A stretch of DNA of 27,555 nucleotides from a virus. The position numbers and the translations under genes are program-made. The stretch lies in IMG/VR virus record IMGVR_UViG_3300028628_000030, positions 1 through 27,555 of that record; one strand, given 5' to 3'. Every line of letters begins with the position of its first letter. The stretch's first letter is position 1. Below are positions 2,746 to 24,999 of the stretch, piece after piece. Under the pieces are notes generated by a model. It ran no database searches. It was given only the letters and a program-made list of their open reading frames with translations, and was not told the DNA's origin.

Positions 2746-3807
2746 ATGGACCCCGCTGACCGGATCCTCTCCTGCCTCTCCAGCGCCCTGAAACCCGGGG
2801 GCAACAATGCCCGGGTCGCCGAAACCCTTGCCGGAGAACTCGACGTCGCCCGCTCGACGGCCGCTGCGATCGACACCGTGCGGAACCCCGACCTCACGAC
2901 CGGGCGGACTCTTGACTACGTTGCGCAGATGTTCAACGTCGCCCGCACCTCCGGCGAGTCGGACGACAGCCTCCGGTCCCGCATCATGACCCAGATCAAG
3001 CGATACTACAGTTGCGGGACCCTCACGGACATCCGGGACGTCATCGAGTACTTCACCGGCCTGACCGGAGACCGGGTCCGGATCCGGGAACCTCCCGACG
3101 TCCACGAGGGATGGGGATACGGAGAAGGACGATATGGGTCTCTGCCCTGGGGCACCCCGCCCGCCATGTTCCGCATCGAGCTCCTCGGCGACGACCACAC
3201 CGCCATCATGCTCCCCGGTCTCGTGGCCGCCAGCGCGCTCGTCCGGGCCGCCGGCGTCTACGTCCAGGACCTGGTCGTCTACAGCACCCTGCAGGAAGTC
3301 CTCGTCGGCGCGGAAGGCTCGACCCTCTGGGACGTCCCCGCTCCCCTGCGCTCGGGCTACGGCACCTGTGGCTACGGCACCTGTGGCTACGGTGGCGTGT
3401 ATACGATCCGATCGACGGCAGAGGGAGCGGTTGACCTGCAGGTGAACGCCGAGGCCGCAGTAGTGGCCGGCATTCGTCATGGGCTCGGTTTCGGGCAGTT
3501 CCCATACGGCTGGGAAGGGTATGGAGGCCGGATTGACACCGCTACAATCGAGTATGACGTCCAGGGCGAGGCTCCCGTCGAGGTAACTGTCTCGACTGAC
3601 CACCAGATCCTCGTAGAGACGGTGCTCGGCTACGGTGCCGGCCGGCTCGGCACTGAGCCGTACGGATCGCGTGCGGGGTCCGTTGATGCCCTGGCAGGGA
3701 GCGCCGTCGACCTGGTCGTCGAACCGACCGCCGCGGTCACGGCGCAGGCGGCCAGTTACCTCGGCTACGGCGCCTGGCGCTATGGCCAGTACGAGTTCGG
3801 CTACTAA
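2746..3807 (+). CDS. Baseplate wedge protein (gpI/XkdU-like N-terminus) with Gly-Tyr-Gly motif blocks
   Basis: TGRTLDYVAQMFNVARxxGESDDSLRSRI motif, position after J; five GYG/GFG..YG blocks. Confidence 0.65.
   Translation: MDPADRILSCLSSALKPGGNNARVAETLAGELDVARSTAAAIDTVRNPDLTTGRTLDYVAQMFNVARTSGESDDSLRSRIMTQIKRYYSCGTLTDIRDVIEYFTGLTGDRVRIREPPDVHEGWGYGEGRYGSLPWGTPPAMFRIELLGDDHTAIMLPGLVAASALVRAAGVYVQDLVVYSTLQEVLVGAEGSTLWDVPAPLRSGYGTCGYGTCGYGGVYTIRSTAEGAVDLQVNAEAAVVAGIRHGLGFGQFPYGWEGYGGRIDTATIEYDVQGEAPVEVTVSTDHQILVETVLGYGAGRLGTEPYGSRAGSVDALAGSAVDLVVEPTAAVTAQAASYLGYGAWRYGQYEFGY
3355..3392 (+). repeat. 15-bp tandem repeat x2.5 (GGCTACGGCACCTGT, GYGTC)
   Basis: Two perfect units plus GGCTACGG, read directly. 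Confidence 0.85.
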
Positions 3808-3809
3808 CC

Positions 3810-3825
3810 CCGACTTTCCTTTTTA
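3810..3825 (+). promoter_or_regulatory. Late-promoter-like motif (CCGACTTTCC-TTTTT-A)
   Basis: 10-mer identical to the 23523 copy; ATG 3851 lies 26 nt after the A. Confidence 0.65.
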
Positions 3826-3850
3826 AACGGGCCATCCCGACCCTCTCTGC

Positions 3851-3961
3851 ATGTCTAACAACGCGAATGTATGTGTTTCCGTGGAATCGGAGGTAATCCA
3901 GTTCCGCGTCGACGCAGAAGGCAAGGAGGTGCCGCTCGATGGTCGGGAAGATCGTCACTAA
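3851..3961 (+). CDS. Small ORF, 36 aa (MSNNANVCVSVESEVIQFRVDAEGKEVPLDGREDRH)
   Basis: ATG at the promoter-motif distance; normal codon usage; overlaps the start of 3939..4307. Below the ORF-track cutoff. Confidence 0.5.
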   Translation: MSNNANVCVSVESEVIQFRVDAEGKEVPLDGREDRH

Positions 3962-4307
3962 CGCCGGCATCAATGAACTGCCCAAACTCCTGGCAGGGTC
4001 CGGCAGCAAGATGGGCTGGATCGCCGTCGGGACCAGCACCGTCAACCCGGCCGTCGGCGACACCGCGATGAAGGGTGAGGTCGCCCGCAAGGCCGCCACC
4101 TACTCGGTCAGTGGCGGCCAGGTGGTCTTCGAGGCCGTCTTCGCTCCCGGTGAGCTGGGCAGTGCCGTCATCACTGAGCTCGGGCTGCTCTCTGCAGCGT
4201 CTGGCGGCGTCCTCTACTACCGTGAGGTCCGGAACCCGCTCAGCTTCGACGCTTCGGTCGGCGCAGCGTTCAAGGTGAAGGCCTCATTCGCACGGGGGGC
4301 TGCCTGA
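3939..4307 (+). CDS. Tail collar/tail-fibre-associated protein
   Basis: GGAGGTG RBS; IVTNAG...IAVGT...P..GDT.M.GE..RK...ITELGL pattern typical of tail-collar fibre domains. Confidence 0.65.
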   Translation: MVGKIVTNAGINELPKLLAGSGSKMGWIAVGTSTVNPAVGDTAMKGEVARKAATYSVSGGQVVFEAVFAPGELGSAVITELGLLSAASGGVLYYREVRNPLSFDASVGAAFKVKASFARGAA

Positions 4308-4513
4308 TGCAGGTCAAACAGCAGATCCAGATTGACACCGCCGCCGGCCGGGAGGTCCTCGACGCGGATCGCTACGCCATCGTCGAGGAGACGTACGTCT
4401 TCCTCAGCGGCAACACGGTCGTCCGCACCGTGCCGATCGAGGACATCGTCGAAGAATACGACGAGGACGGCGACCAGACGAAGGGCATCGTCACCATCTA
4501 CTCCAGGACGTGA
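4307..4513 (+). CDS. Hypothetical acidic protein (68 aa)
   Basis: TGATG coupling to the upstream gene; typical codon usage. Confidence 0.6.
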   Translation: MQVKQQIQIDTAAGREVLDADRYAIVEETYVFLSGNTVVRTVPIEDIVEEYDEDGDQTKGIVTIYSRT

Positions 4514-4519
4514 TCTTGC

Positions 4520-5884
4520 ATGGCTACACCCAAATTCAACCTCGAAAAACCCGGGTTCGGCGATCTGGACTGGCACATCCCCCACAACCAGAATTTTGAC
4601 CGCATCGACGCTGCGCTCATCAACGTCATGGGCTCGCAGATCGGCGACCCGACCTACGATCTCAACCTGCGCTCGCCTGCGCTCCCGAACCGCGTGCTCC
4701 GCATCAAGGACGGCGGCGACACCCCGAACGACCTGGAGATCCACCAGGTCTGGATCCCGTTCTTCCGCAGCGCTGGCTTCACACAGCCGAACCTCAATGA
4801 CCTGATCCTCGGTGGGTTCTGGGTCGACAAGTTCCAGGCCTGCCAGCCGCTGGCAACGGCGACCTCCCGCGGCGGCCTGACCCCCAACAGCCCCGGTGCC
4901 GGCGTCGGCGCCGCGAGCAAACCCCACGTCGTCCCCTGGACGGACGTCTCGTGGAACACCGCCCGGGCCGCCCTCGAGAACCGTGGCGGCGCCGCGAACA
5001 AGTCCGCCTCCGGCACCCCGACCCCCTGCACGATGTACGCGACCGGCGACCACCCGAAGGCCGAGTTCCTCGTCGACAATATTGAGCACCTGGTCGGCCG
5101 GCGTGTCGAGATAGTTCAGGGCGGCACGACCTACTTCCGCCGGATTATCAAGGCCGGCAAGTTCGGCGAGGCCAAGTATGTCCGGGTCTTCCCGGAGCTC
5201 CCGGCGACCATCACCACCGACGACACCTACACCATTGTCGGCCACCACATGATCACCCCCGACGAGCAATTCGCCCTGGCCGCCTGGGCGATGACGTTCC
5301 GCTACCGGCATGGATTGCAGTACCCCAAGGGCAACAACGACTACGGCAAGGACATCGGGGACACGCGCGCGATCGAGTATGAGGGGCTAACTGACCCGGT
5401 GCTCGCCGGCGACGCGACCCACGAGAAGCGCCGGTGCCTGACCGGGTCCGGACCGCTCAGTTGGTCCTTGAACGGCCGTGCCGATGGGGTCTGGGACCTC
5501 AATGGTAACGTCTGGGAGTGGAACTTCCAGCAGATCGTCTCCGATGGGGTCAACCTCTCGATTGCCCCGGGATACCCCGGTGCCGGAACTATCGTCACTC
5601 CGCCTGGCACCACCGGGCAGCGGATCACAGCGATGTACGACGCCGACACCCCCGTCGACGGCCTCTCCCTGAACCCGGACATCTGCCTGCCGACGGGGGT
5701 AACCAGTGGCGGATCCGCAGAGTTCGGGAACGACGGATGCTGGTGGAAACTGGATGCGGCCACCTATGCTGCCCTACGGGGCGGGTATTGGTACGGCGGC
5801 CTCGGCATCGGGGTGTGGGCCGTGTTTCTGTACTACTTCCCCACGCATACGGACTACAACGTCGGGTTCCGCGGCGCATTCTGA
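4520..5884 (+). CDS. DGR target: tail fibre/receptor-binding protein with C-terminal CLec (FGE-sulfatase-like) fold
   Basis: N-terminal MATPKFNLEKP..DW..P.NQNFDRID tail-fibre anchor; GFWVDKFQA, PWTDVSW, DLNGNVWEW, ALRGG.W and VGFRG motifs of CLec/FGE-fold DGR targets; its 3' end is the VR. Confidence 0.9.
   Translation: MATPKFNLEKPGFGDLDWHIPHNQNFDRIDAALINVMGSQIGDPTYDLNLRSPALPNRVLRIKDGGDTPNDLEIHQVWIPFFRSAGFTQPNLNDLILGGFWVDKFQACQPLATATSRGGLTPNSPGAGVGAASKPHVVPWTDVSWNTARAALENRGGAANKSASGTPTPCTMYATGDHPKAEFLVDNIEHLVGRRVEIVQGGTTYFRRIIKAGKFGEAKYVRVFPELPATITTDDTYTIVGHHMITPDEQFALAAWAMTFRYRHGLQYPKGNNDYGKDIGDTRAIEYEGLTDPVLAGDATHEKRRCLTGSGPLSWSLNGRADGVWDLNGNVWEWNFQQIVSDGVNLSIAPGYPGAGTIVTPPGTTGQRITAMYDADTPVDGLSLNPDICLPTGVTSGGSAEFGNDGCWWKLDAATYAALRGGYWYGGLGIGVWAVFLYYFPTHTDYNVGFRGAF
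5767..5877 (+). repeat. DGR variable region (VR)
   Basis: 111-nt ungapped match to 6285-6395 with 17 mismatches, 15 opposite TR adenines; ends in invariant TCGGGTTCCGCGGCGC (IMH-like). Confidence 0.95.
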
Positions 5885-5937
5885 GCATCTGGAGGCCTGA
5901 CACTCTGACATCTGACCTTAAAAATCTGAAAATCTAC
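5880..5937 (+). repeat. TCTGA-type short repeat cluster downstream of VR
   Basis: TCTGA at 5880, 5904, 5911, 5925; variants TCTGG 5888, CCTGA 5897, TCTAC 5933. Confidence 0.7.
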
Positions 5938-6249
5938 CAGAAGGCTCGGGACCTGGCGGTCCTCATCTTCCCGGTGACGGACCGCTACCCCAAGCCGCAG
6001 CAGTACGGAGGCCTGGCCTCCGAGCTGCGGCAGGCAACGCTGGACCTGCTCAAGACGATCGCCGCGGTCAACGAGTCTCACAGCCGGCTGCTGCACGAAG
6101 CTATCGACGCCGACCTGCGGCAGATCGGCCTGATGCTCGACCTGGCCACAGACCTCAAGTACATGACGCCGGACCAGCGCGACGCGCTGCGGATCCGGAT
6201 CGACGAGATCGGACGCATGAACGGAGGGTGGATGAAGACGGCCGCATAG
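5905..6249 (+). CDS. avd: DGR accessory variability determinant (four-helix bundle), probable CTG start
   Basis: LKIYQKARDL...RYPKPQQYGGLASELRQ...EIGRMNGGWMK matches the Avd/23S-IVP four-helix family; lies between VR and TR; GGAGG 5891-5895 is 9 nt before in-frame CTG 5905. The start is inferred. Confidence 0.85.
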   Translation: MTSDLKNLKIYQKARDLAVLIFPVTDRYPKPQQYGGLASELRQATLDLLKTIAAVNESHSRLLHEAIDADLRQIGLMLDLATDLKYMTPDQRDALRIRIDEIGRMNGGWMKTAA

Positions 6250-6570
6250 GCCGTCCGACACTGCGGGCCGGGTCCGGAACCCCTTGCTGCCCTACGGGGC
6301 GGGAATTGGAACAACGGCCTCAACAACGGGGTGTGGGCCGTGAATCTGAACAACGTCCCCACGAACACGAACAACAACATCGGGTTCCGCGGCGCGCAAT
6401 ACCCTCAACGGCACAGACGGTTGCGACCACGGTTGCGCCGTCGCCGATTGATGGTACAGGACCCGGATCCCGCCGCCACATCGGCGAAAAATCCAGCCCG
6501 TGAGGGGGAGCCAGTAGGCGAGGATCGCCGACCCCTCCGCCTCATTTTACTTTTACCAGGAGTTGATACC
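6250..6570 (+). ncRNA. Putative DGR template RNA region (5' leader, TR, 3' spacer)
   Basis: Region between avd and RT; hairpins 6471-6486 and 6502-6537; CCGGGTCC (6268-6275) is complementary to GGACCCGG (6459-6466). Boundaries unknown. Confidence 0.6.
6285..6395 (+). repeat. DGR template region (TR)
   Basis: 28 adenines, including 12 AAY codons in the VR reading frame; 111-nt match to VR. Confidence 0.95.
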
Positions 6571-7599
6571 ACGAAAACCTACACGAACCTCTACCCGACG
6601 GTCTGCTCCCCAACGAATCTTTTCAGCGCATACACCCAGTGCCGCCGGGGAAAAGGCGACAAATCCTACGTCACCGAGTTTGAAAAGCATCTTCAGGAGA
6701 ACCTCGACACCCTGGCAGAAGCCCTGCAGTCCAGGACGTGGACGCCGAAGGGTTACAGCCGGTTCTACGTGAACGACCCCAAGCGTCGCCTGATCAATGC
6801 TCCGGCATTCGAAGACCGCATCGTCCATCGGGCACTCTACGATGTCATCATGCCGCCTTTTGAGAGGGGGTTCTACCCCCACAGTTACGCCTGCCGGCGC
6901 GGGAAGGGCGCGCATGCCGGCGTCGCCTGCCTCCGTCAGTATCTCCGTCAGTACTCGACGCCACCATACTACCTCCAGATCGACATCAAATCGTACTTCG
7001 CCAGCATCCATCACGACACCCTCATGGCCATCATCCGGAGAAAGATCGCCGACTCGGACGTCCTCGCCCTGATCAGGAAGATCCTCGACAGTTACCACGA
7101 CAGCCCGGGCACGGGCATCCCCTTAGGCAATCTGACCAGCCAGCTCTTCGCCAACATCTACCTCAACGAACTCGACCACTACGTCAAGCACGTTTTGAGA
7201 TGCCGGCACTACATTCGGTATATGGACGATATTATATTACTGAGCGAAACAAAAGCCCAACTCTGGGAATGGAAGGCGGCCATCGAAGAGTTCATCGCCC
7301 GGCTGCGACTCCGCCTCCACCCGCGCAAGCAGGTCGTCGCGCCTGCCCGCTGCGGCATCGACTTCCTCGGCTACGTCATCTACCCAGACCACGTCCGGGT
7401 GCGGAACCGCAACATCCACCGGGTCTACGACCGGATGAAGCGGATCGAGGCCGGCACGTATCCCCGGGACCCGCGGGGCTCGATCATGTCCTGGATGGGA
7501 TACTCCATCCACGCCGACGCGCACGGCCTCAACCAGAGCATCCAGCGAAAGCACCCCTTCCTCGTCCTCGGGACCGAGAAGTTCTACGGGAGGTGCTGA
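6571..7599 (+). CDS. DGR reverse transcriptase (probable ACG start 6571; alternative in-frame ATG 6451)
   Basis: KTYxNLY N-terminus, PKRRLINAPAFEDRIVH, DIKSYFASI, GIPLGNLTSQLFANIYLNELD (GxxxSQ), YIRYMDD, GIDFLGY, SW.G..HA; no maturase domain. Confidence 0.95.
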   Translation, partial: TKTYTNLYPTVCSPTNLFSAYTQCRRGKGDKSYVTEFEKHLQENLDTLAEALQSRTWTPKGYSRFYVNDPKRRLINAPAFEDRIVHRALYDVIMPPFERGFYPHSYACRRGKGAHAGVACLRQYLRQYSTPPYYLQIDIKSYFASIHHDTLMAIIRRKIADSDVLALIRKILDSYHDSPGTGIPLGNLTSQLFANIYLNELDHYVKHVLRCRHYIRYMDDIILLSETKAQLWEWKAAIEEFIARLRLRLHPRKQVVAPARCGIDFLGYVIYPDHVRVRNRNIHRVYDRMKRIEAGTYPRDPRGSIMSWMGYSIHADAHGLNQSIQRKHPFLVLGTEKFYGRC

Positions 7600-7965: not shown

Positions 7966-8009
7966 GTGAATCGTCATGGATCGAGCAGTTGCCCAGGGTG
8001 CAAGGGTGA

Positions 8010-8038
8010 CGACCCGGGTTCGAATCCCGGCCGGGGCG
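8010..8038 (+). other. 3' fragment of a tRNA (T-arm plus acceptor strand; tRNA-Asp-like), possible att core
   Basis: CGAC-CCGGG-TTCGAAT-CCCGG-CCGGGGC-G is a perfect T-arm plus 7-nt acceptor strand and G discriminator; no 5' acceptor strand or D-arm at the expected distance. Confidence 0.65.
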
Positions 8039-8122
8039 TCTCCACAATTTTCTCCGACAACCTCCTGGTCAAGCGGAGCGTCTGACCCCAGCCTAAGCCG
8101 CGCCGCCGCAAACCTCCCCTAT

Positions 8123-9349
8123 ATGGAGGTAGATCATGTTCGGGACACCGCGCGGATGCGGGTCTATCGCCTCGACGGCGTCGAGGTGCAGACAACGATC
8201 GGGTCGGTGCTCGAATCAGTTCTCAAGCAGATCAAAAACCTGGGCCGTCCGTACCTAACGTCGATGGAGCTGAAGGGCGACCCCGTGCAGGTGAGCGGTG
8301 CGTTGCGAGCCCTGGTGAAACGAGGAGCGCTCGCCCGCAGCCCGGGGATCCTCTCGGTCCGCGGGAACGAGCGGTTCTACCTGTATTACAGCCTGCTCAG
8401 TTACTGCGTCAAGGACCAGCTCATCGAGGACTACCTTGAGGCCAACTCCCCCGATCCGCGCATCGTCGAGATCTTCCACCGGGTCAAGTATAGGGGAGAG
8501 ATCCTCTCCAACTACGACATCCGCGCGGAGTTCGGCGCGATTGACCTGATCCAGCTGCAGAACTACATCAGGAACGGCATCCTGGGCGAACGCTACGTCA
8601 AGCGGCACAACAACACCTACATCGACGCGACGTTCTGGTTCCCGGTCGGCATGGCCCCCGAGGCCGTCGACCAGGCCATCCAGGAGAAACTCGACTCCTC
8701 GATCCTCAAGCGGAAAGCAGCGATTGACAAGGGTAAAGAGTTCGAAAACAGTTTATATGCGGCATTTGGAACCATGTTTGCCGCACAAAGCCTGCAATTC
8801 AGTGTCTTCGACCACAAAAAGCAGGTGCGCAAGCAGCTCGCTGGCGGGCGGCTGCGGATCTTCGACATGGTCGCGTATGCGGCACCCGTGCTTATGGATA
8901 GCGGCGGTCACCAGAAACCACTGAAGTGGTTTCACGGCTCCATTAAACTTGTATTCGAATTCAAATATAATTTTCGGGTCACGAAAGGATTCCTGGCTGA
9001 GTACTACATGGACGTCCACGAAGCCTACGGCGATCTGGCCGTCCCGGTGGTCGTCGCCGGCGGGGATCCGGGGTACGGAGCAGTCTACGACTCCGGGTGG
9101 CAGTTCGCCAAGTGCCACAACGGCGTCTGGCTGATCACCGGCTCCTCTCTGACCCAGGTGCTCTCAGGAGGGTTTTCCCTCGCTTCACAGGCCCACAACA
9201 CAGGTGAAGCAAATGAGCACGAAATCGAACACGACAGACTACATCATAACGGATGTACCCCGTACCGAACTGACGAACACGATTGCGGCGGCCCTCTCAC
9301 GGCCTGGCTCGCGACCGATCGAACTGACGGCGACCCTGACCGCCCCTAA
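8123..9349 (+). CDS. Winged-helix + Mrr-like PD-(D/E)xK nuclease (start 8123 or 8156)
   Basis: N-terminal wHTH pattern (VSGALRALVKRGAL); KGKEFE...FD...LVFEFK catalytic pattern and C-terminal LITGSSL, as in Mrr-type restriction endonuclease domains. Confidence 0.65.
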   Translation: MEVDHVRDTARMRVYRLDGVEVQTTIGSVLESVLKQIKNLGRPYLTSMELKGDPVQVSGALRALVKRGALARSPGILSVRGNERFYLYYSLLSYCVKDQLIEDYLEANSPDPRIVEIFHRVKYRGEILSNYDIRAEFGAIDLIQLQNYIRNGILGERYVKRHNNTYIDATFWFPVGMAPEAVDQAIQEKLDSSILKRKAAIDKGKEFENSLYAAFGTMFAAQSLQFSVFDHKKQVRKQLAGGRLRIFDMVAYAAPVLMDSGGHQKPLKWFHGSIKLVFEFKYNFRVTKGFLAEYYMDVHEAYGDLAVPVVVAGGDPGYGAVYDSGWQFAKCHNGVWLITGSSLTQVLSGGFSLASQAHNTGEANEHEIEHDRLHHNGCTPYRTDEHDCGGPLTAWLATDRTDGDPDRP

Positions 9350-10926: not shown

Positions 10927-11075
10927 CCACGTCAGCCGAGACCCCATGCGACATCCTAGATTATAAGCATATCTGCTCCCGGCACACCCTCCTCCTCTCC
11001 GGAGGACAGGTCATCGGCCGGGGGGAAGAGGCTCTGGAGGAGTACCTCCGCAGGGTCCAGGAGGTGCCCGCTTGA
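10923..11075 (+). CDS. Hypothetical protein (50 aa, GTG start)
   Basis: GTGA and TTGA overlaps fill the gap exactly; manual translation. Confidence 0.55.
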   Translation: MTTSAETPCDILDYKHICSRHTLLLSGGQVIGRGEEALEEYLRRVQEVPA

Positions 11076-11596
11076 TCGCCCGAACTGTGCACCTCTCCCC
11101 CCGGTACCTAGACGTCTACACCGACCACCCCTCCCCTCTCCATCACCCCGTCGAGCGGATCACGATCGCGGGCCAGACCTGGGTGCGCCGGTTCGACCGC
11201 CGGGACAGGGACGAGGAAGACCTCCTTATCCAGACGATCTCCCTCCTGACTGCTGAAGAAGACATCGTGATCGTCGGGTACAACAGCGCGATCTTCGACC
11301 TGCCGTTCATGAGCATGCGGGCGGTCGCTCTCGATCTCCCCCCCTCCCTGGTCAGTCGACTACGGCGAGCCTATCACGTCGACCTGGCCTACCTGGTCAA
11401 CCGGTACCTCCAGCCGTTTAATCGCTGGACCAACTGGCGGGAACTCATCCCGGTTCTGGACCTCCCGGAAGACGCCTCAAAACTCGACGTCACCCGGGAG
11501 CTCTACAAGAGGATCGACGCCCTGACCATCCAGAACATGCAGAGCCGGTATGCCCCGCTCCGGAACTGCGCGATCGTGTTCGACGATGCCCGCTGA
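11072..11596 (+). CDS. RNase H-like/DEDD 3'-5' exonuclease-fold protein (YprB/PolB-exo-like), degenerate motif I
   Basis: IVGYNSAIFDLPFM (ExoII), HVDL, DV..ELY; ExoI reads LDVYT instead of DxE. TTG start after GGAGGTG. Confidence 0.6.
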   Translation: MIARTVHLSPRYLDVYTDHPSPLHHPVERITIAGQTWVRRFDRRDRDEEDLLIQTISLLTAEEDIVIVGYNSAIFDLPFMSMRAVALDLPPSLVSRLRRAYHVDLAYLVNRYLQPFNRWTNWRELIPVLDLPEDASKLDVTRELYKRIDALTIQNMQSRYAPLRNCAIVFDDAR

Positions 11597-13549: not shown

Positions 13550-13758
13550 ATGTGAGGTTTCCGGAACTCCAGGACCGGGCCTGGCTAGAGCAGCACTACC
13601 TGAAGGATCTCAAGTCCGCGAAAGAGATCGCAGACAGCCTCGGGTGCTCTAGATCCACGATCACCCTTGCACTCCGGAGACATGAGATCGCCACGATCCC
13701 GCCGCTGCTCAGGAAGGCCCTCAAGGCACGCCGGGATCAGCAGGAGGCGACCTCGTGA
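13546..13758 (+). CDS. HTH DNA-binding protein
   Basis: WLEQHY....SAKEIADSLGCSRSTITLALRRHEI helix-turn-helix. Confidence 0.75.
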   Translation: MNVRFPELQDRAWLEQHYLKDLKSAKEIADSLGCSRSTITLALRRHEIATIPPLLRKALKARRDQQEATS

Positions 13759-14501
13759 GCCAGGTTCGCTACCCGCACCGGGCCACCAAGCGCCTCGACG
13801 ACCTCGAGCCGCTCAACGGCCCCCGGCTGCACGACCGGATCTACAACGACATCCTCGTCGCCGGGCTCGACTTCCGCCGGGACCAGGCCGAAGAGTGCCC
13901 GGGTGTCAAACTCCTCGGCACCCTCATGGACATCCACCAGGCCTACAGCGACGAAGCCGGCCCCTTCGGCGACATGTTCGGCGAGTGGCTCGAATGCAAC
14001 GGGCAGACCAGCGAGCGGAACGGCCAGTTCTTCACCCCGATCGACATCGTCGACATGATCGTGGAGATGACGTTCCAGGGCACCGACCTCAGCCGGAAGG
14101 CCCCGTGGACCATCAACGACCCCGCCTGCGGCACCGGGCGGTTCATGCTCCGGACCGCCCGCTACTTCGCCGGCAACAACCACGGGGCGCTCAACTTCCT
14201 CTTCACCAACGTCGACATCGACCGCCGGGCCTTCACGTTCTGCACGATGAATGCCGTCCTCAACGGCATCCCCGGGATCCACATCCACGGCGACACCCTC
14301 CGGGTGGAAGTCTGGGACGCCTTCGCCACGCTCCCGATCGGCCAGTTCGCCCTCTGGGAGCGCCTCCGGCCGGAGGTCGCCCGGGACCTCATCATCCAGT
14401 CTCTCAAGCCCCCGGCGGAGCAGCCTGCAAAGCCGGCACCCCTGCCTGCCCCGAAAGAGTCCGTGCAGGCCCGCCTCTTCCAGGACGGTGAGGCCGCATG
14501 A
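13755..14501 (+). CDS. N6-adenine DNA methyltransferase-like protein lacking an NPP(F/Y) motif
   Basis: GQFFTP, INDPACGTGRFML (SAM-binding), DID, GDTL present; no NPPY/F/W in the 248 aa. Confidence 0.7.
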   Translation: MSQVRYPHRATKRLDDLEPLNGPRLHDRIYNDILVAGLDFRRDQAEECPGVKLLGTLMDIHQAYSDEAGPFGDMFGEWLECNGQTSERNGQFFTPIDIVDMIVEMTFQGTDLSRKAPWTINDPACGTGRFMLRTARYFAGNNHGALNFLFTNVDIDRRAFTFCTMNAVLNGIPGIHIHGDTLRVEVWDAFATLPIGQFALWERLRPEVARDLIIQSLKPPAEQPAKPAPLPAPKESVQARLFQDGEAA

Positions 14502-21107: not shown

Positions 21108-21476
21108 ATGGACCCAATCCCCGAGGACATCCAGCGGCAACTGGAGCGGTTCATCCAGGAGGACCTCAACGGCGCGGTCGTGACGAGCGCCACGGTCAAT
21201 GTGGATGAGCACGGTCGGATCGAGATCGAAGAACTGATCCTCCGCCGGCAGGACCGGAAAGAAGTCTCGCTCGGGCTCGCCGGCATGCGCCCGGACGGCA
21301 CCCGCCGGGAGCCGGCGATCGTGATAGACATTTACGATACCCCGAAGCCGCGCCGCTCGTGGACGATCGGCGGCTGGCGGGAGATGACGATCGCAGAGCA
21401 CTATGCAGAGGACCTGGCGGAGCTGACCGCCCCACTCTGCCCCCCCGACCCGCCGGAGCCGTGGGACCGCGAATAA
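21108..21476 (+). CDS. Hypothetical protein
   Basis: GAGGAGG RBS, ATG 21108. Confidence 0.65.
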   Translation: MDPIPEDIQRQLERFIQEDLNGAVVTSATVNVDEHGRIEIEELILRRQDRKEVSLGLAGMRPDGTRREPAIVIDIYDTPKPRRSWTIGGWREMTIAEHYAEDLAELTAPLCPPDPPEPWDRE

Positions 21477-23562: not shown

Positions 23563-24999
23563 ATGAAACTCCTCAAAGCGCTCTCCCGCTCCTTCTCCAG
23601 AGCGTCCCCCCCGGCCATGATGATGGATCTCAGCGCCTTCCCTGCCGACGGTGACGAGGACGTCGTCTCGAAGCGTAGCGTCTACGACCCGCACTTCATC
23701 CCTCCGGAGGGCTGGGACGCCTGGTCCGAGTGGGCCGCCGAGCAGGGGAAGATCGCCCGCATCATCAACACCCTCGCGAAATCGACGATGTCGTTCACGC
23801 TCAAAAGCCAGGACAAAGACTGCCAGGACCTCTGCAACGCGATGACCCGGAGCACTCACCTGCACACCGCCCTCCTCACCAGCGCCAGGTACTGGCACAT
23901 CTACGGCAGGGTCTTCATCGAGCCGGTCTGGGCGACCACCTCGAAGACCGCCCTGGCGAAGATCCGGAACCTCTATCCCCCGAGCGTCATGGTCTATCGC
24001 AACTCCGAGGCCGACATCCAGAATCTCAAGGCCGCACTCAAGGACACGGTATACGAACCGTATGCCGCCAGCCTCAAGGCCGGGAACGGGGACACTGTCA
24101 TCGGGTATCTTCAGAACTACGTCCCTCACAACGCGAAGAACGAAAGCATGGTCTTCTTCCGCCCCGACGAACTCATCTTCATCCCCCGGTACCCCAGCGC
24201 CCGGCACCCGAACGGCATCAGCCTGCCGGCGCAGAACTATATCCTCATCATGAACAAGCTCGGCATGGAGAAGGACCAGGCGATCATGGTCAAGCGTCAC
24301 GGCGACCCCAAGCACAAGTTCTTCATTCCGGCCGACACCTGGGACGACCCGGCCGAGCGGGACATGCTGAAGAAAGGGTTCAAGAAAGGGATCCGTGCCG
24401 GGCTTGACTTCTTCTTCCGGTCCGGAGAGACCAATCAGGACAAGATGGACGTCGACCTCGTCGAGCCGAAAGGCAACCCCGCCGCCGTCTCCAAGGCCAT
24501 CGACCACCTCGAAAACCAGTTCAATGCCGCGATGTGCTGGGCCGACTCCTTCAACGAGTCCGGCTCCTCCAACCGCTCGGTCGGCTACATCCAGCTTGCC
24601 TTCTTCGAGCGCGAGATCACCCCGGAGCGCCGGTTCTTCGCCGAGATCCTCGAAGACCAGCTCCTCGCCCCCTGGCTGCAGGCGAACGGCTACGCCCCCG
24701 ACGACGCCTGGTTCGAGTTCGAGGACCTCACCCCCGAAGACCGGCTGCAGAAGGCCGCAATCATCGCCCCCCTCCTCCCCTACCTCCCGGCCAGTGTTGC
24801 TGAGAAGTTCCTGGAGGATATGGGCTACCCGATCGACGGTGCCGGCGGAACCCCCGCAGCGGCGCCCGAACAGACTCCCTACTACAGCTTGAAAGGGGTC
24901 CCGCAACCCGTCAGCCGGGGCACCCGGCCTGTGCGGGACCAGCTCCGCCAGGAGATCGAGGACATCGCGGAGGAGGTCCGCGACGTCCTGGGGTACTGA
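23563..24999 (+). CDS. Portal protein
   Basis: About 478 aa between terL and gpF-like genes; YWHIYGRVFIE, FxPDELI and amphipathic helices typical of portals; assigned mainly by synteny. Confidence 0.75.
   Translation: MKLLKALSRSFSRASPPAMMMDLSAFPADGDEDVVSKRSVYDPHFIPPEGWDAWSEWAAEQGKIARIINTLAKSTMSFTLKSQDKDCQDLCNAMTRSTHLHTALLTSARYWHIYGRVFIEPVWATTSKTALAKIRNLYPPSVMVYRNSEADIQNLKAALKDTVYEPYAASLKAGNGDTVIGYLQNYVPHNAKNESMVFFRPDELIFIPRYPSARHPNGISLPAQNYILIMNKLGMEKDQAIMVKRHGDPKHKFFIPADTWDDPAERDMLKKGFKKGIRAGLDFFFRSGETNQDKMDVDLVEPKGNPAAVSKAIDHLENQFNAAMCWADSFNESGSSNRSVGYIQLAFFEREITPERRFFAEILEDQLLAPWLQANGYAPDDAWFEFEDLTPEDRLQKAAIIAPLLPYLPASVAEKFLEDMGYPIDGAGGTPAAAPEQTPYYSLKGVPQPVSRGTRPVRDQLRQEIEDIAEEVRDVLGY

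Follow-up and report, generated by a model that had tools for sequence, protein, structure and literature searches.

A probable diversity-generating retroelement at the end of the tail module of a contractile-tailed Methanoculleus virus

The stretch of DNA analysed here, referred to below as the window, is the entire IMG/VR record IMGVR_UViG_3300028628_000030, a linear fragment of 27,555 nt with a G+C content of ~64%. It very probably carries a diversity-generating retroelement (DGR) of the Bordetella-phage/ANMV-1 type, situated at the end of the baseplate/tail-fibre module of a contractile-tailed Methanoculleus virus of ~38-39 kb. Few natural systems achieve targeted protein hypermutation, and DGRs are one of these. 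The assignment to this class, which had been made in an initial annotation of the window, is supported by the agreement of a reverse transcriptase (RT) of the DGR clade, differences between a template repeat (TR) and a variable repeat (VR) that are specific to adenines, an Avd protein and a target protein with a predicted C-type lectin (CLec) fold. The order of target (with VR), avd, TR and RT was found to be as first described. The features of the cassette are as follows, where IMH denotes initiation of mutagenic homing and ORF an open reading frame.

4520-5884, + strand: DGR target gene, encoding 454 aa, with the VR at its C-terminus
5767-5877, + strand: VR of 111 nt, the last 37 target codons bar the final two (codons 416-453 of 454)
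5862-5877, + strand: GC-rich 16-nt 3' end common to VR and TR, TCGGGTTCCGCGGCGC, an IMH-like boundary
5905-6249, + strand: avd, accessory variability determinant, four-helix bundle
6285-6395, + strand: TR, with 28 adenines and 12 AAY codons in the target frame
6396-6573, + strand: conserved TR-RT spacer of ~175 nt
6451-7599, + strand: RT ORF, with homology to DGR RTs from 6574 (KTYTNLY)

Repeats, reverse transcriptase and accessory protein

Within a direct repeat that pairs 5752-5877 with 6270-6395, the well-aligned core of 111 nt contains 17 mismatches and no gaps. Fifteen of these are at TR adenines, of which there are 28, and two are at the 83 other positions (Fisher p = 2.9e-9), namely a G>T at 5837 and a C>T at 5848. 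The length of the pair and the share of mismatches at adenines (15 of 17) agree with the initial annotation. The 12 AAY codons allow 15^12 = 1.3e14 combinations, which corresponds to the earlier figure of about 1e14 variants, and four further adenine-bearing TR codons, three of them residue-changing, bring the ceiling to ~8e15. No second VR or other copy of the repeat was detected elsewhere in the window.

Alignment of the two repeats showed them to be wholly divergent beyond TCGGGTTCCGCGGCGC. By analogy with phage BPP-1, positions 5862-5877 would thus represent an IMH-like 3' homing boundary, and it should be noted that the sequence immediately 3' of the VR is strongly conserved in relatives. 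The spacer between TR and RT is conserved above the flanking coding sequence. Its first ~100 nt are near-invariant in six contigs, one of which has an RT that is just 57% identical, and it contains predicted stems with a few compensatory changes. Like the Sp region of BPP-1, it probably forms a structured 3' portion of the DGR RNA.

The RT was identified with Pfam RVT_1 (E 1e-21) and aligned over nearly the full chain to PDB 8ub7, a 328-aa reverse transcriptase (179 bits, E 1e-51) which we take to be bRT of Bordetella phage BPP-1, the structure record giving the molecule name only. In this alignment the [LIV]GxxxSQ motif of the window RT (IGNLTSQ; IGNLTSQLFANIY) and its YMDD motif line up with those of 8ub7, so that both motifs are intact as had been proposed. 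The best match among 50,697 phage records was the RT of the archaeal virus ANMV-1 (identity 42.6%, query coverage 87%). A small maximum likelihood tree, which included four group II intron RTs and no retrons or other RT classes, placed the window RT and its relatives with BPP-1 Brt, ANMV-1 and the methanogen virus vir525, the four group II RTs lying across a branch with a support of 100 in the Shimodaira-Hasegawa-like approximate likelihood ratio test. The RT phylogeny that had been recommended as a check therefore places the window RT in the DGR clade, apart from group II introns.

The possibility of a group II intron RT/maturase was rejected on this and on other grounds. The match to the group II RT/maturase model TIGR04416 reached 170.5 bits against a family cut-off of 300, with only the RT part aligned and the maturase (X) domain unaligned. 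Group II intron RTs in the PDB gave at most 111 bits (E 1e-30 to 1e-31), and plasmid ltrA genes showed 23-31% identity over 53-71% of the query.

Between the target and the TR, the product of avd was matched by Pfam bAvd (E 1e-15; 58 bits, over the cut-off of 40). Its best NCBIfam match was DivGenRetAVD (E 2e-18), for which the 66.5 bits are under the cut-off of 80, and this match covers model positions 1-104, beginning at residue 8 of the protein.

Homing in related lineages and the state of the window copy

Activity was read from related contigs, which were compared as independent natural variants. The proportion of TR/VR mismatches lying at TR adenines in these contigs was as follows.

L033: 6 of 6
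L025: 16 of 16
L026: 18 of 18
L168: 12 of 13

Among lineages the TRs vary at 31 columns, 19 of which contain no adenine in any TR. At these 19 columns each VR mirrors its own TR, the sole exceptions being column 8 of L168 and column 70 of the window. Of the 22 columns with an adenine in all TRs, 20 vary among the VRs. Because the non-adenine changes of the TRs are mirrored in their own VRs while the adenine positions differ, the comparison shows, at the level of the lineage (L025, L026, L033 and L168) rather than of this molecule, that unidirectional TR-to-VR transfer with adenine-specific randomisation went on after the lineages split. This particular copy is presumably still active as well.

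Several observations weigh against that reading of the window copy. Homing in BPP-1 requires a hairpin/cruciform downstream of the VR, and none was found in 5860-5960 (z 0.42 relative to shuffled controls). The two mismatches away from adenines could mean that some time has elapsed since the last homing event. There is no ATG, GTG or TTG from the target stop to the first helix of the Avd model, and the ancestral ATG of the RT (6571-6573) is ACG in the window and in its nearest relative, L024, and in no others. The description of the element as complete and apparently functional in the initial annotation therefore holds in that all parts are present with their motifs intact; it needs qualifying for the two starts, the RT having ACG and avd lacking a canonical start codon.

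The best guess for the start of avd is CTG 5905, which lies 21 nt past the target stop and 9 nt after GGAGG, and initiation there may be linked to translational termination at that stop. In six contigs the CTG is found 9-10 nt after a GGAGG/GGGGG element, with the residues from the CTG onward conserved through synonymous substitutions. The avd frame relative to the target varies between contigs, yet the residues after the CTG stay conserved. The first canonical start, a GTG giving a 91-aa Avd and the choice of the gene callers on L168, is unlikely, as it removes helix 1 aligned by the Avd models, and is also disfavoured by the conservation, with synonymous changes, of the residues upstream of it.

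With regard to the RT, the start is an ATG right before KTY(T/N)(N/D)LY in L033, L025, L026-28, L029 and L168, and a TTG in L031. A GTG start at 6331 for this ORF was not upheld, since it falls within the TR and the RTs of relatives begin at the codon that precedes KTY. In the window the frame is open upstream to ATG 6451, giving 382 codons and an addition of 40 residues. This ATG falls within the conserved TR-RT spacer, and no ATG is present there in L026 or L168. The RT might be made with the 40-residue extension, or weakly from the ACG. It is possible, if doubtful, that the conserved CTG start of avd and the shift of the RT to ACG or an upstream ATG act together as a throttle on adhesin mutation through weak initiation. 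If true, weak initiation would keep down the rate at which an archaeal virus diversifies its adhesin.

The changed RT start could alternatively suggest that the window cassette is a recently silenced relic: with ATG mutated to ACG at the RT start, homing would have ceased or become much rarer, leaving the VR to drift. The ACG is confined to the window and L024, seven relatives keeping ATG and L031 having TTG, and the window has two non-adenine mismatches, as against none in L033, L025 and L026. However, the RT frame remains open for its 382 codons from the in-frame ATG 6451 with the catalytic motifs unimpaired, and the TR is 100% identical in the window and L024. In addition, nine synonymous and nine non-synonymous changes separate the RT core of the window from that of L024, a ratio of non-synonymous to synonymous change (pN/pS) of 0.30 (p 0.02 against a neutral 1:3). 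Since these substitutions skew synonymous, the RT would appear to be still selected, and the count argues for purifying selection since the split of the two. A silenced relic is considered unlikely, and the cassette is regarded here as a DGR whose RT has lost its ancestral start codon.

The target protein, a proposed mechanism and comparison with known systems

In the 454-aa target protein, a disordered N-terminus is followed by a beta-rich middle domain and, at the C-terminus, a C-type-lectin/formylglycine-generating enzyme (FGE)-like domain which holds the VR. No Pfam family scored above threshold for this protein. An AlphaFold model based on 38 homologues gave a predicted local distance difference score (pLDDT) of 85 and a predicted template modelling score (pTM) of 0.86, and was confident from residue 51, the N-terminal 50 residues being unmodelled. 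The best Foldseek matches to the model were the Thermus aquaticus protein TaqVP (PDB 5vf4, E 2e-13), TvpA (2y3c) and Mtd (1yu4), followed by FGEs, so that the top structural matches are precisely the solved DGR variable proteins. FGEs themselves have a C-type-lectin-like fold. At the sequence level, the target showed 29% identity to AdtA, the DGR target of ANMV-1, over residues 62-454 (E 2e-27), its C-terminus matched phrog_5302, annotated as tail protein, and P0012, a homologue that is 65% identical, has the Mtd N-terminal domain (Mtd_N).

Upstream of the target, a domain search detected two baseplate genes.

1654-2742: baseplate J, upstream of the DGR target
2746-3807: P2-I-like protein, upstream of the DGR target

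The baseplate genes reported ahead of the target in the initial annotation were thereby recovered, but the tail-collar gene also reported there was not, no such domain being detected in 2746-4513. Because the target follows baseplate J and the P2-I-like protein in an order which recurs on related contigs, it is probably a tail-fibre receptor-binding protein, and would be expected to bind a receptor on the host surface.

A different ligand has also to be considered, in which case the target would be a lectin whose ligand might be, for example, particles, partner cells or some other digester surface, and not a host-receptor adhesin. The unmodelled N-terminal 50 residues leave room for this, as do the two small ORFs of unassigned function that part the target from the baseplate genes. 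Set against these, however, are the position of the gene in the tail module after the two baseplate genes, its homology to AdtA and structural similarity to Mtd, the Mtd N-terminal domain of its 65%-identical homologue and the match of its C-terminus to the PHROG tail protein family, and together they make another ligand quite improbable.

For the target as a receptor-binding protein, the following mechanism is proposed on the model of BPP-1. RNA comprising the TR (6285-6395) and the downstream spacer would be reverse-transcribed by a complex of RT and Avd. The template adenines would be copied unfaithfully, giving a cDNA randomised at up to 28 positions. This cDNA would then replace the VR (5767-5877), with the GC-rich end of homology (5862-5877) setting the boundary. 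In the protein, 12 AAY and three other codons would be rewritten on the ligand-binding face of the CLec domain with the framework left intact, and the virus would thus sample new receptor specificities. The outcome may be putative tropism switching against S-layer or glycan receptors.

Among described systems, the closest is the DGR of ANMV-1, which has the arrangement AdtA-Avd-TR-RT in a genome of 38.5 kb (Paul et al., 2015; PMC4372165; GenBank KP703175). The kinship with this virus, which the initial annotation had named, is evident in the homology of both RT and target, an identical order of the cassette next to genes for tail fibres, a similar genome size (38.5 kb compared to ~38-39 kb) and a VR that lies in a CLec domain at the C-terminus, with many AAY codons. 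The two differ in that the hosts of ANMV-1 are anaerobic methanotrophic (ANME) archaea of marine seeps and the host here is assigned to Methanoculleus of anaerobic digesters, with a link drawn from CRISPR spacers that include those of a cultured strain. The genome organisation of ANMV-1 is also unlike that of the window virus, and it has nine AAY codons as opposed to 12.

BPP-1, the experimental prototype (mtd-avd-TR-brt), has the identical target(VR)-avd-TR-RT order, a target of CLec fold, a repertoire of 12 AAY codons and a GC-rich end to the VR/TR homology. It is, however, a short-tailed phage of bacteria whose downstream hairpin was undetected in the window, where the TR-RT spacer is only ~175 nt and where avd and RT are without canonical starts in this copy; identity between the target sequences is undetectable beyond the fold. 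TaqVP is the best structural match (TM 0.46-0.56 at the E value given above) and the sole sequence-level PDB match to the target (E 2e-4), but it is a cellular protein of a bacterium and no virion component, with 14-16% identity. The fourth system, vir525 (Caudoviricetes sp., BK063673, host Methanosarcinales), is likewise a tailed virus of a methanogen with an RT beside a tail protein, this RT being 36.9% identical and in the same DGR clade of the tree. It differs in its host order, its 60-kb genome and the lack of an annotated avd between tail protein and RT.

The DGR class, its occurrence in archaeal viruses and the targeting of tail fibres are therefore already established, and understanding of the DGR mechanism is unchanged by the element in the window. 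What is added is a firm Methanoculleus assignment, comparative evidence for ongoing homing and the peculiarities of the start codons. To our knowledge, archaeal DGRs are known from sequence only, namely from ANMV-1, DPANN genomes and bulk metagenome surveys. The locus may already be present in a DGR catalogue, because the source IMG metagenomes were mined in bulk to yield >31,000 DGRs (Roux et al., 2021; PMC8144416). Apart from incidental mentions, the literature searched contained nothing that connects DGRs to Methanoculleus or Methanomicrobiales; the main methanogen virus compendium (Medvedeva et al., 2023) was outside this search, and the novelty of the host link is uncertain.

Host, genome extent and neighbouring features

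Based on near-perfect spacers in clustered regularly interspaced short palindromic repeat (CRISPR) arrays, which are the decisive evidence, the host of the virus is assigned to Methanoculleus (Methanomicrobiales). A DNA search of 55 genomes in the family of Methanoculleus chikugoensis, with the arrays verified as CRISPR, gave a total of seven such spacers in the arrays of three genomes. Methanoculleus sp. MH98A, a named isolate, has matches of 34/34, 35/35 and 35/36, the last one inside the DGR target gene. Genome G054 has a match of 37/37, and genome G092 has matches of 39/40 (in avd), 35/36 (in the RT) and 35/36. The protospacers are located as follows.

5159-5194: matched 35/36 by the Methanoculleus sp. 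MH98A spacer
1439-1475, 6054-6093, 7419-7454, 8001-8036, 21153-21186 and 23917-23951: further protospacers

The three CRISPR arrays (L171, L172 and L173) have three distinct repeats of 37, 36 and 32 nt, and different CRISPR systems of the host family have therefore acquired spacers against the virus independently. A further pair of spacer-like sequences 73 nt apart was observed in G232:C1, from a genome of the Methanoculleus family, where 9698-9733 matches the TR (window 6285-6320, 92%) and 9771-9807 matches 1401-1437 (86%). The pair possibly belongs to a CRISPR array directed against the DGR template.

A second indication of the host is provided by a tRNA fragment downstream of the RT.

8011-8038, + strand: 3' fragment of a tRNA (T-arm and acceptor strand), possible attP core, in the context 7991-8044

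Over 30 nt, the fragment matches tRNA-Arg(CCG) of Methanoculleus genomes without a mismatch. When its exact pattern was searched in one genome per prokaryotic species, 119 of the 120 matches listed were archaeal, approximately half of them from Methanomicrobiales. The T-loop reads TTCGAAT in the window and TTCAAAT in L024 and L025. No provirus was evident beside the tRNA genes bearing the fragment, as no window protein matched any of the 120 fetched loci; no integrase was recognised near 8011-8038, and the window contains no tRNA genes. An SSV-type integrase with an internal attP, for which the ORF at 7976/8123-9349 was a candidate, was rejected, the protein giving no integrase signal and just a weak lead to helix-turn-helix (HTH) and Mrr-like proteins.

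TerL was also compared across the 301 genomes of the order to which M. chikugoensis belongs. In a six-frame search, TerL relatives were found in 16 of these 301 Methanomicrobiales genomes, one being 89% identical and several 55-59% identical on long chromosomal contigs, whereas the best TerL of a cultured phage was 41% identical. A TerL peptide scan of species genomes and a search of four named Methanoculleus genomes gave no match. Three of the five named target homologues derive from Methanoculleus metagenome-assembled genomes (MAGs). The archaeal host of the initial annotation is thus borne out, and the CRISPR spacer and tRNA matches suggested there as checks both point to Methanoculleus. 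A halophile host was rejected, as the proteome is not acidic (D+E 12.2% compared to K+R 11.6%). That the contig is from a bacteriophage, with archaeal signals that are coincidental or mis-binned, is effectively refuted: the labels of two named target homologues (Clostridia and Corynebacterium MAGs) and of one cluster member (Bacilli), and a TerL family common to many bacteriophages at 35-41% identity, are outweighed by the seven spacers in three arrays of the Methanoculleus family, one of the three from a named isolate, by the TerL relatives at 55-59% on long Methanomicrobiales contigs and by the archaeal tRNA fragment.

Homologues of the RT (31-37% identity) were present in 10 of the 301 genomes, and in five of these the contig also carries a TerL homologue at a distance of 14-17 kb (G186:C5, G296:C24, G173:C2, G157:C18 and G181:C19; TerL 45-59%, RT 31-35%), a spacing as in the window virus. 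These five contigs are probably integrated or binned relatives that bear DGRs and, because RT homologues with a virus-like spacing to TerL occur in the order, such relatives would appear to be spread across the Methanomicrobiales. Methanoculleus is a cultivable methanogen of industrial importance in biogas reactors. With this link and the natural variants, an archaeal DGR could become testable at the bench, and the virus is a candidate experimental system. It is also suggested that receptor diversification shapes the dynamics between viruses and methanogens in digesters.

The remaining part of the genome is carried by relatives, including L005 and L037, which overlap both ends of the window at 91-95% identity. 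Their part encodes the end of the major capsid protein, neck, terminator, sheath (phrog_205), tube, a tape measure of 903 aa, a Dit-like protein, hub and spike, the sheath gene being outside the window itself. Because these overlapping relatives supply the missing tail genes, the tail is contractile, as initially proposed, and a genome of ~38-39 kb is suggested, with the window representing ~70% of the total. Together with the CRISPR host link, the sheath and baseplate genes identify the virus as an archaeal contractile-tailed member of the Caudoviricetes. The gene order of the virus recurs on an NCBI MAG contig of 39,182 nt. The CheckV completeness of 32% is probably an underestimate.

A promoter-like motif was detected ahead of the block of tail-fibre and DGR genes.

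3810-3825, + strand: promoter-like motif CCGACTTTCC-TTTTTA

The general form, CCGACYYTCC followed by T5-7 and A, has five matches in the window against 0.18 expected. The positions of the motif are 1256, 3810, 21552, 23523, 26442 (and 25827). An ATG lies ~25-38 nt after the T-run, and the genes downstream are structural and packaging genes. This geometry fits an archaeal promoter with a transcription factor B recognition element (BRE) and TATA box, and with leaderless or short-leader mRNAs, and the motif is therefore a candidate promoter. The copy at 3810 probably drives transcription through to the DGR. Genes internal to operons carry GGAGG-type ribosome-binding sites instead of this motif.

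Further observations were made on other genes of the window. The protein encoded by 8123-9349 (ORF listed as 7976-9349) belongs to no Pfam, PHROG or NCBIfam family; its language-model look-alikes, with scores of 0.84-0.89, come from archaeal HTH and Mrr-like restriction-endonuclease clusters and are regarded as a lead only. In the early region, an N6 adenine DNA methylase domain (PF02384, E 1e-15) was identified at 13755-14501 and may represent anti-restriction cargo. A small protein encoded by 11072-11596 showed a weak match, just below the cut-off (E 1e-4), to the 3'-5' exonuclease domain of family B DNA polymerases, and the same domain match was found on the related contig L169.

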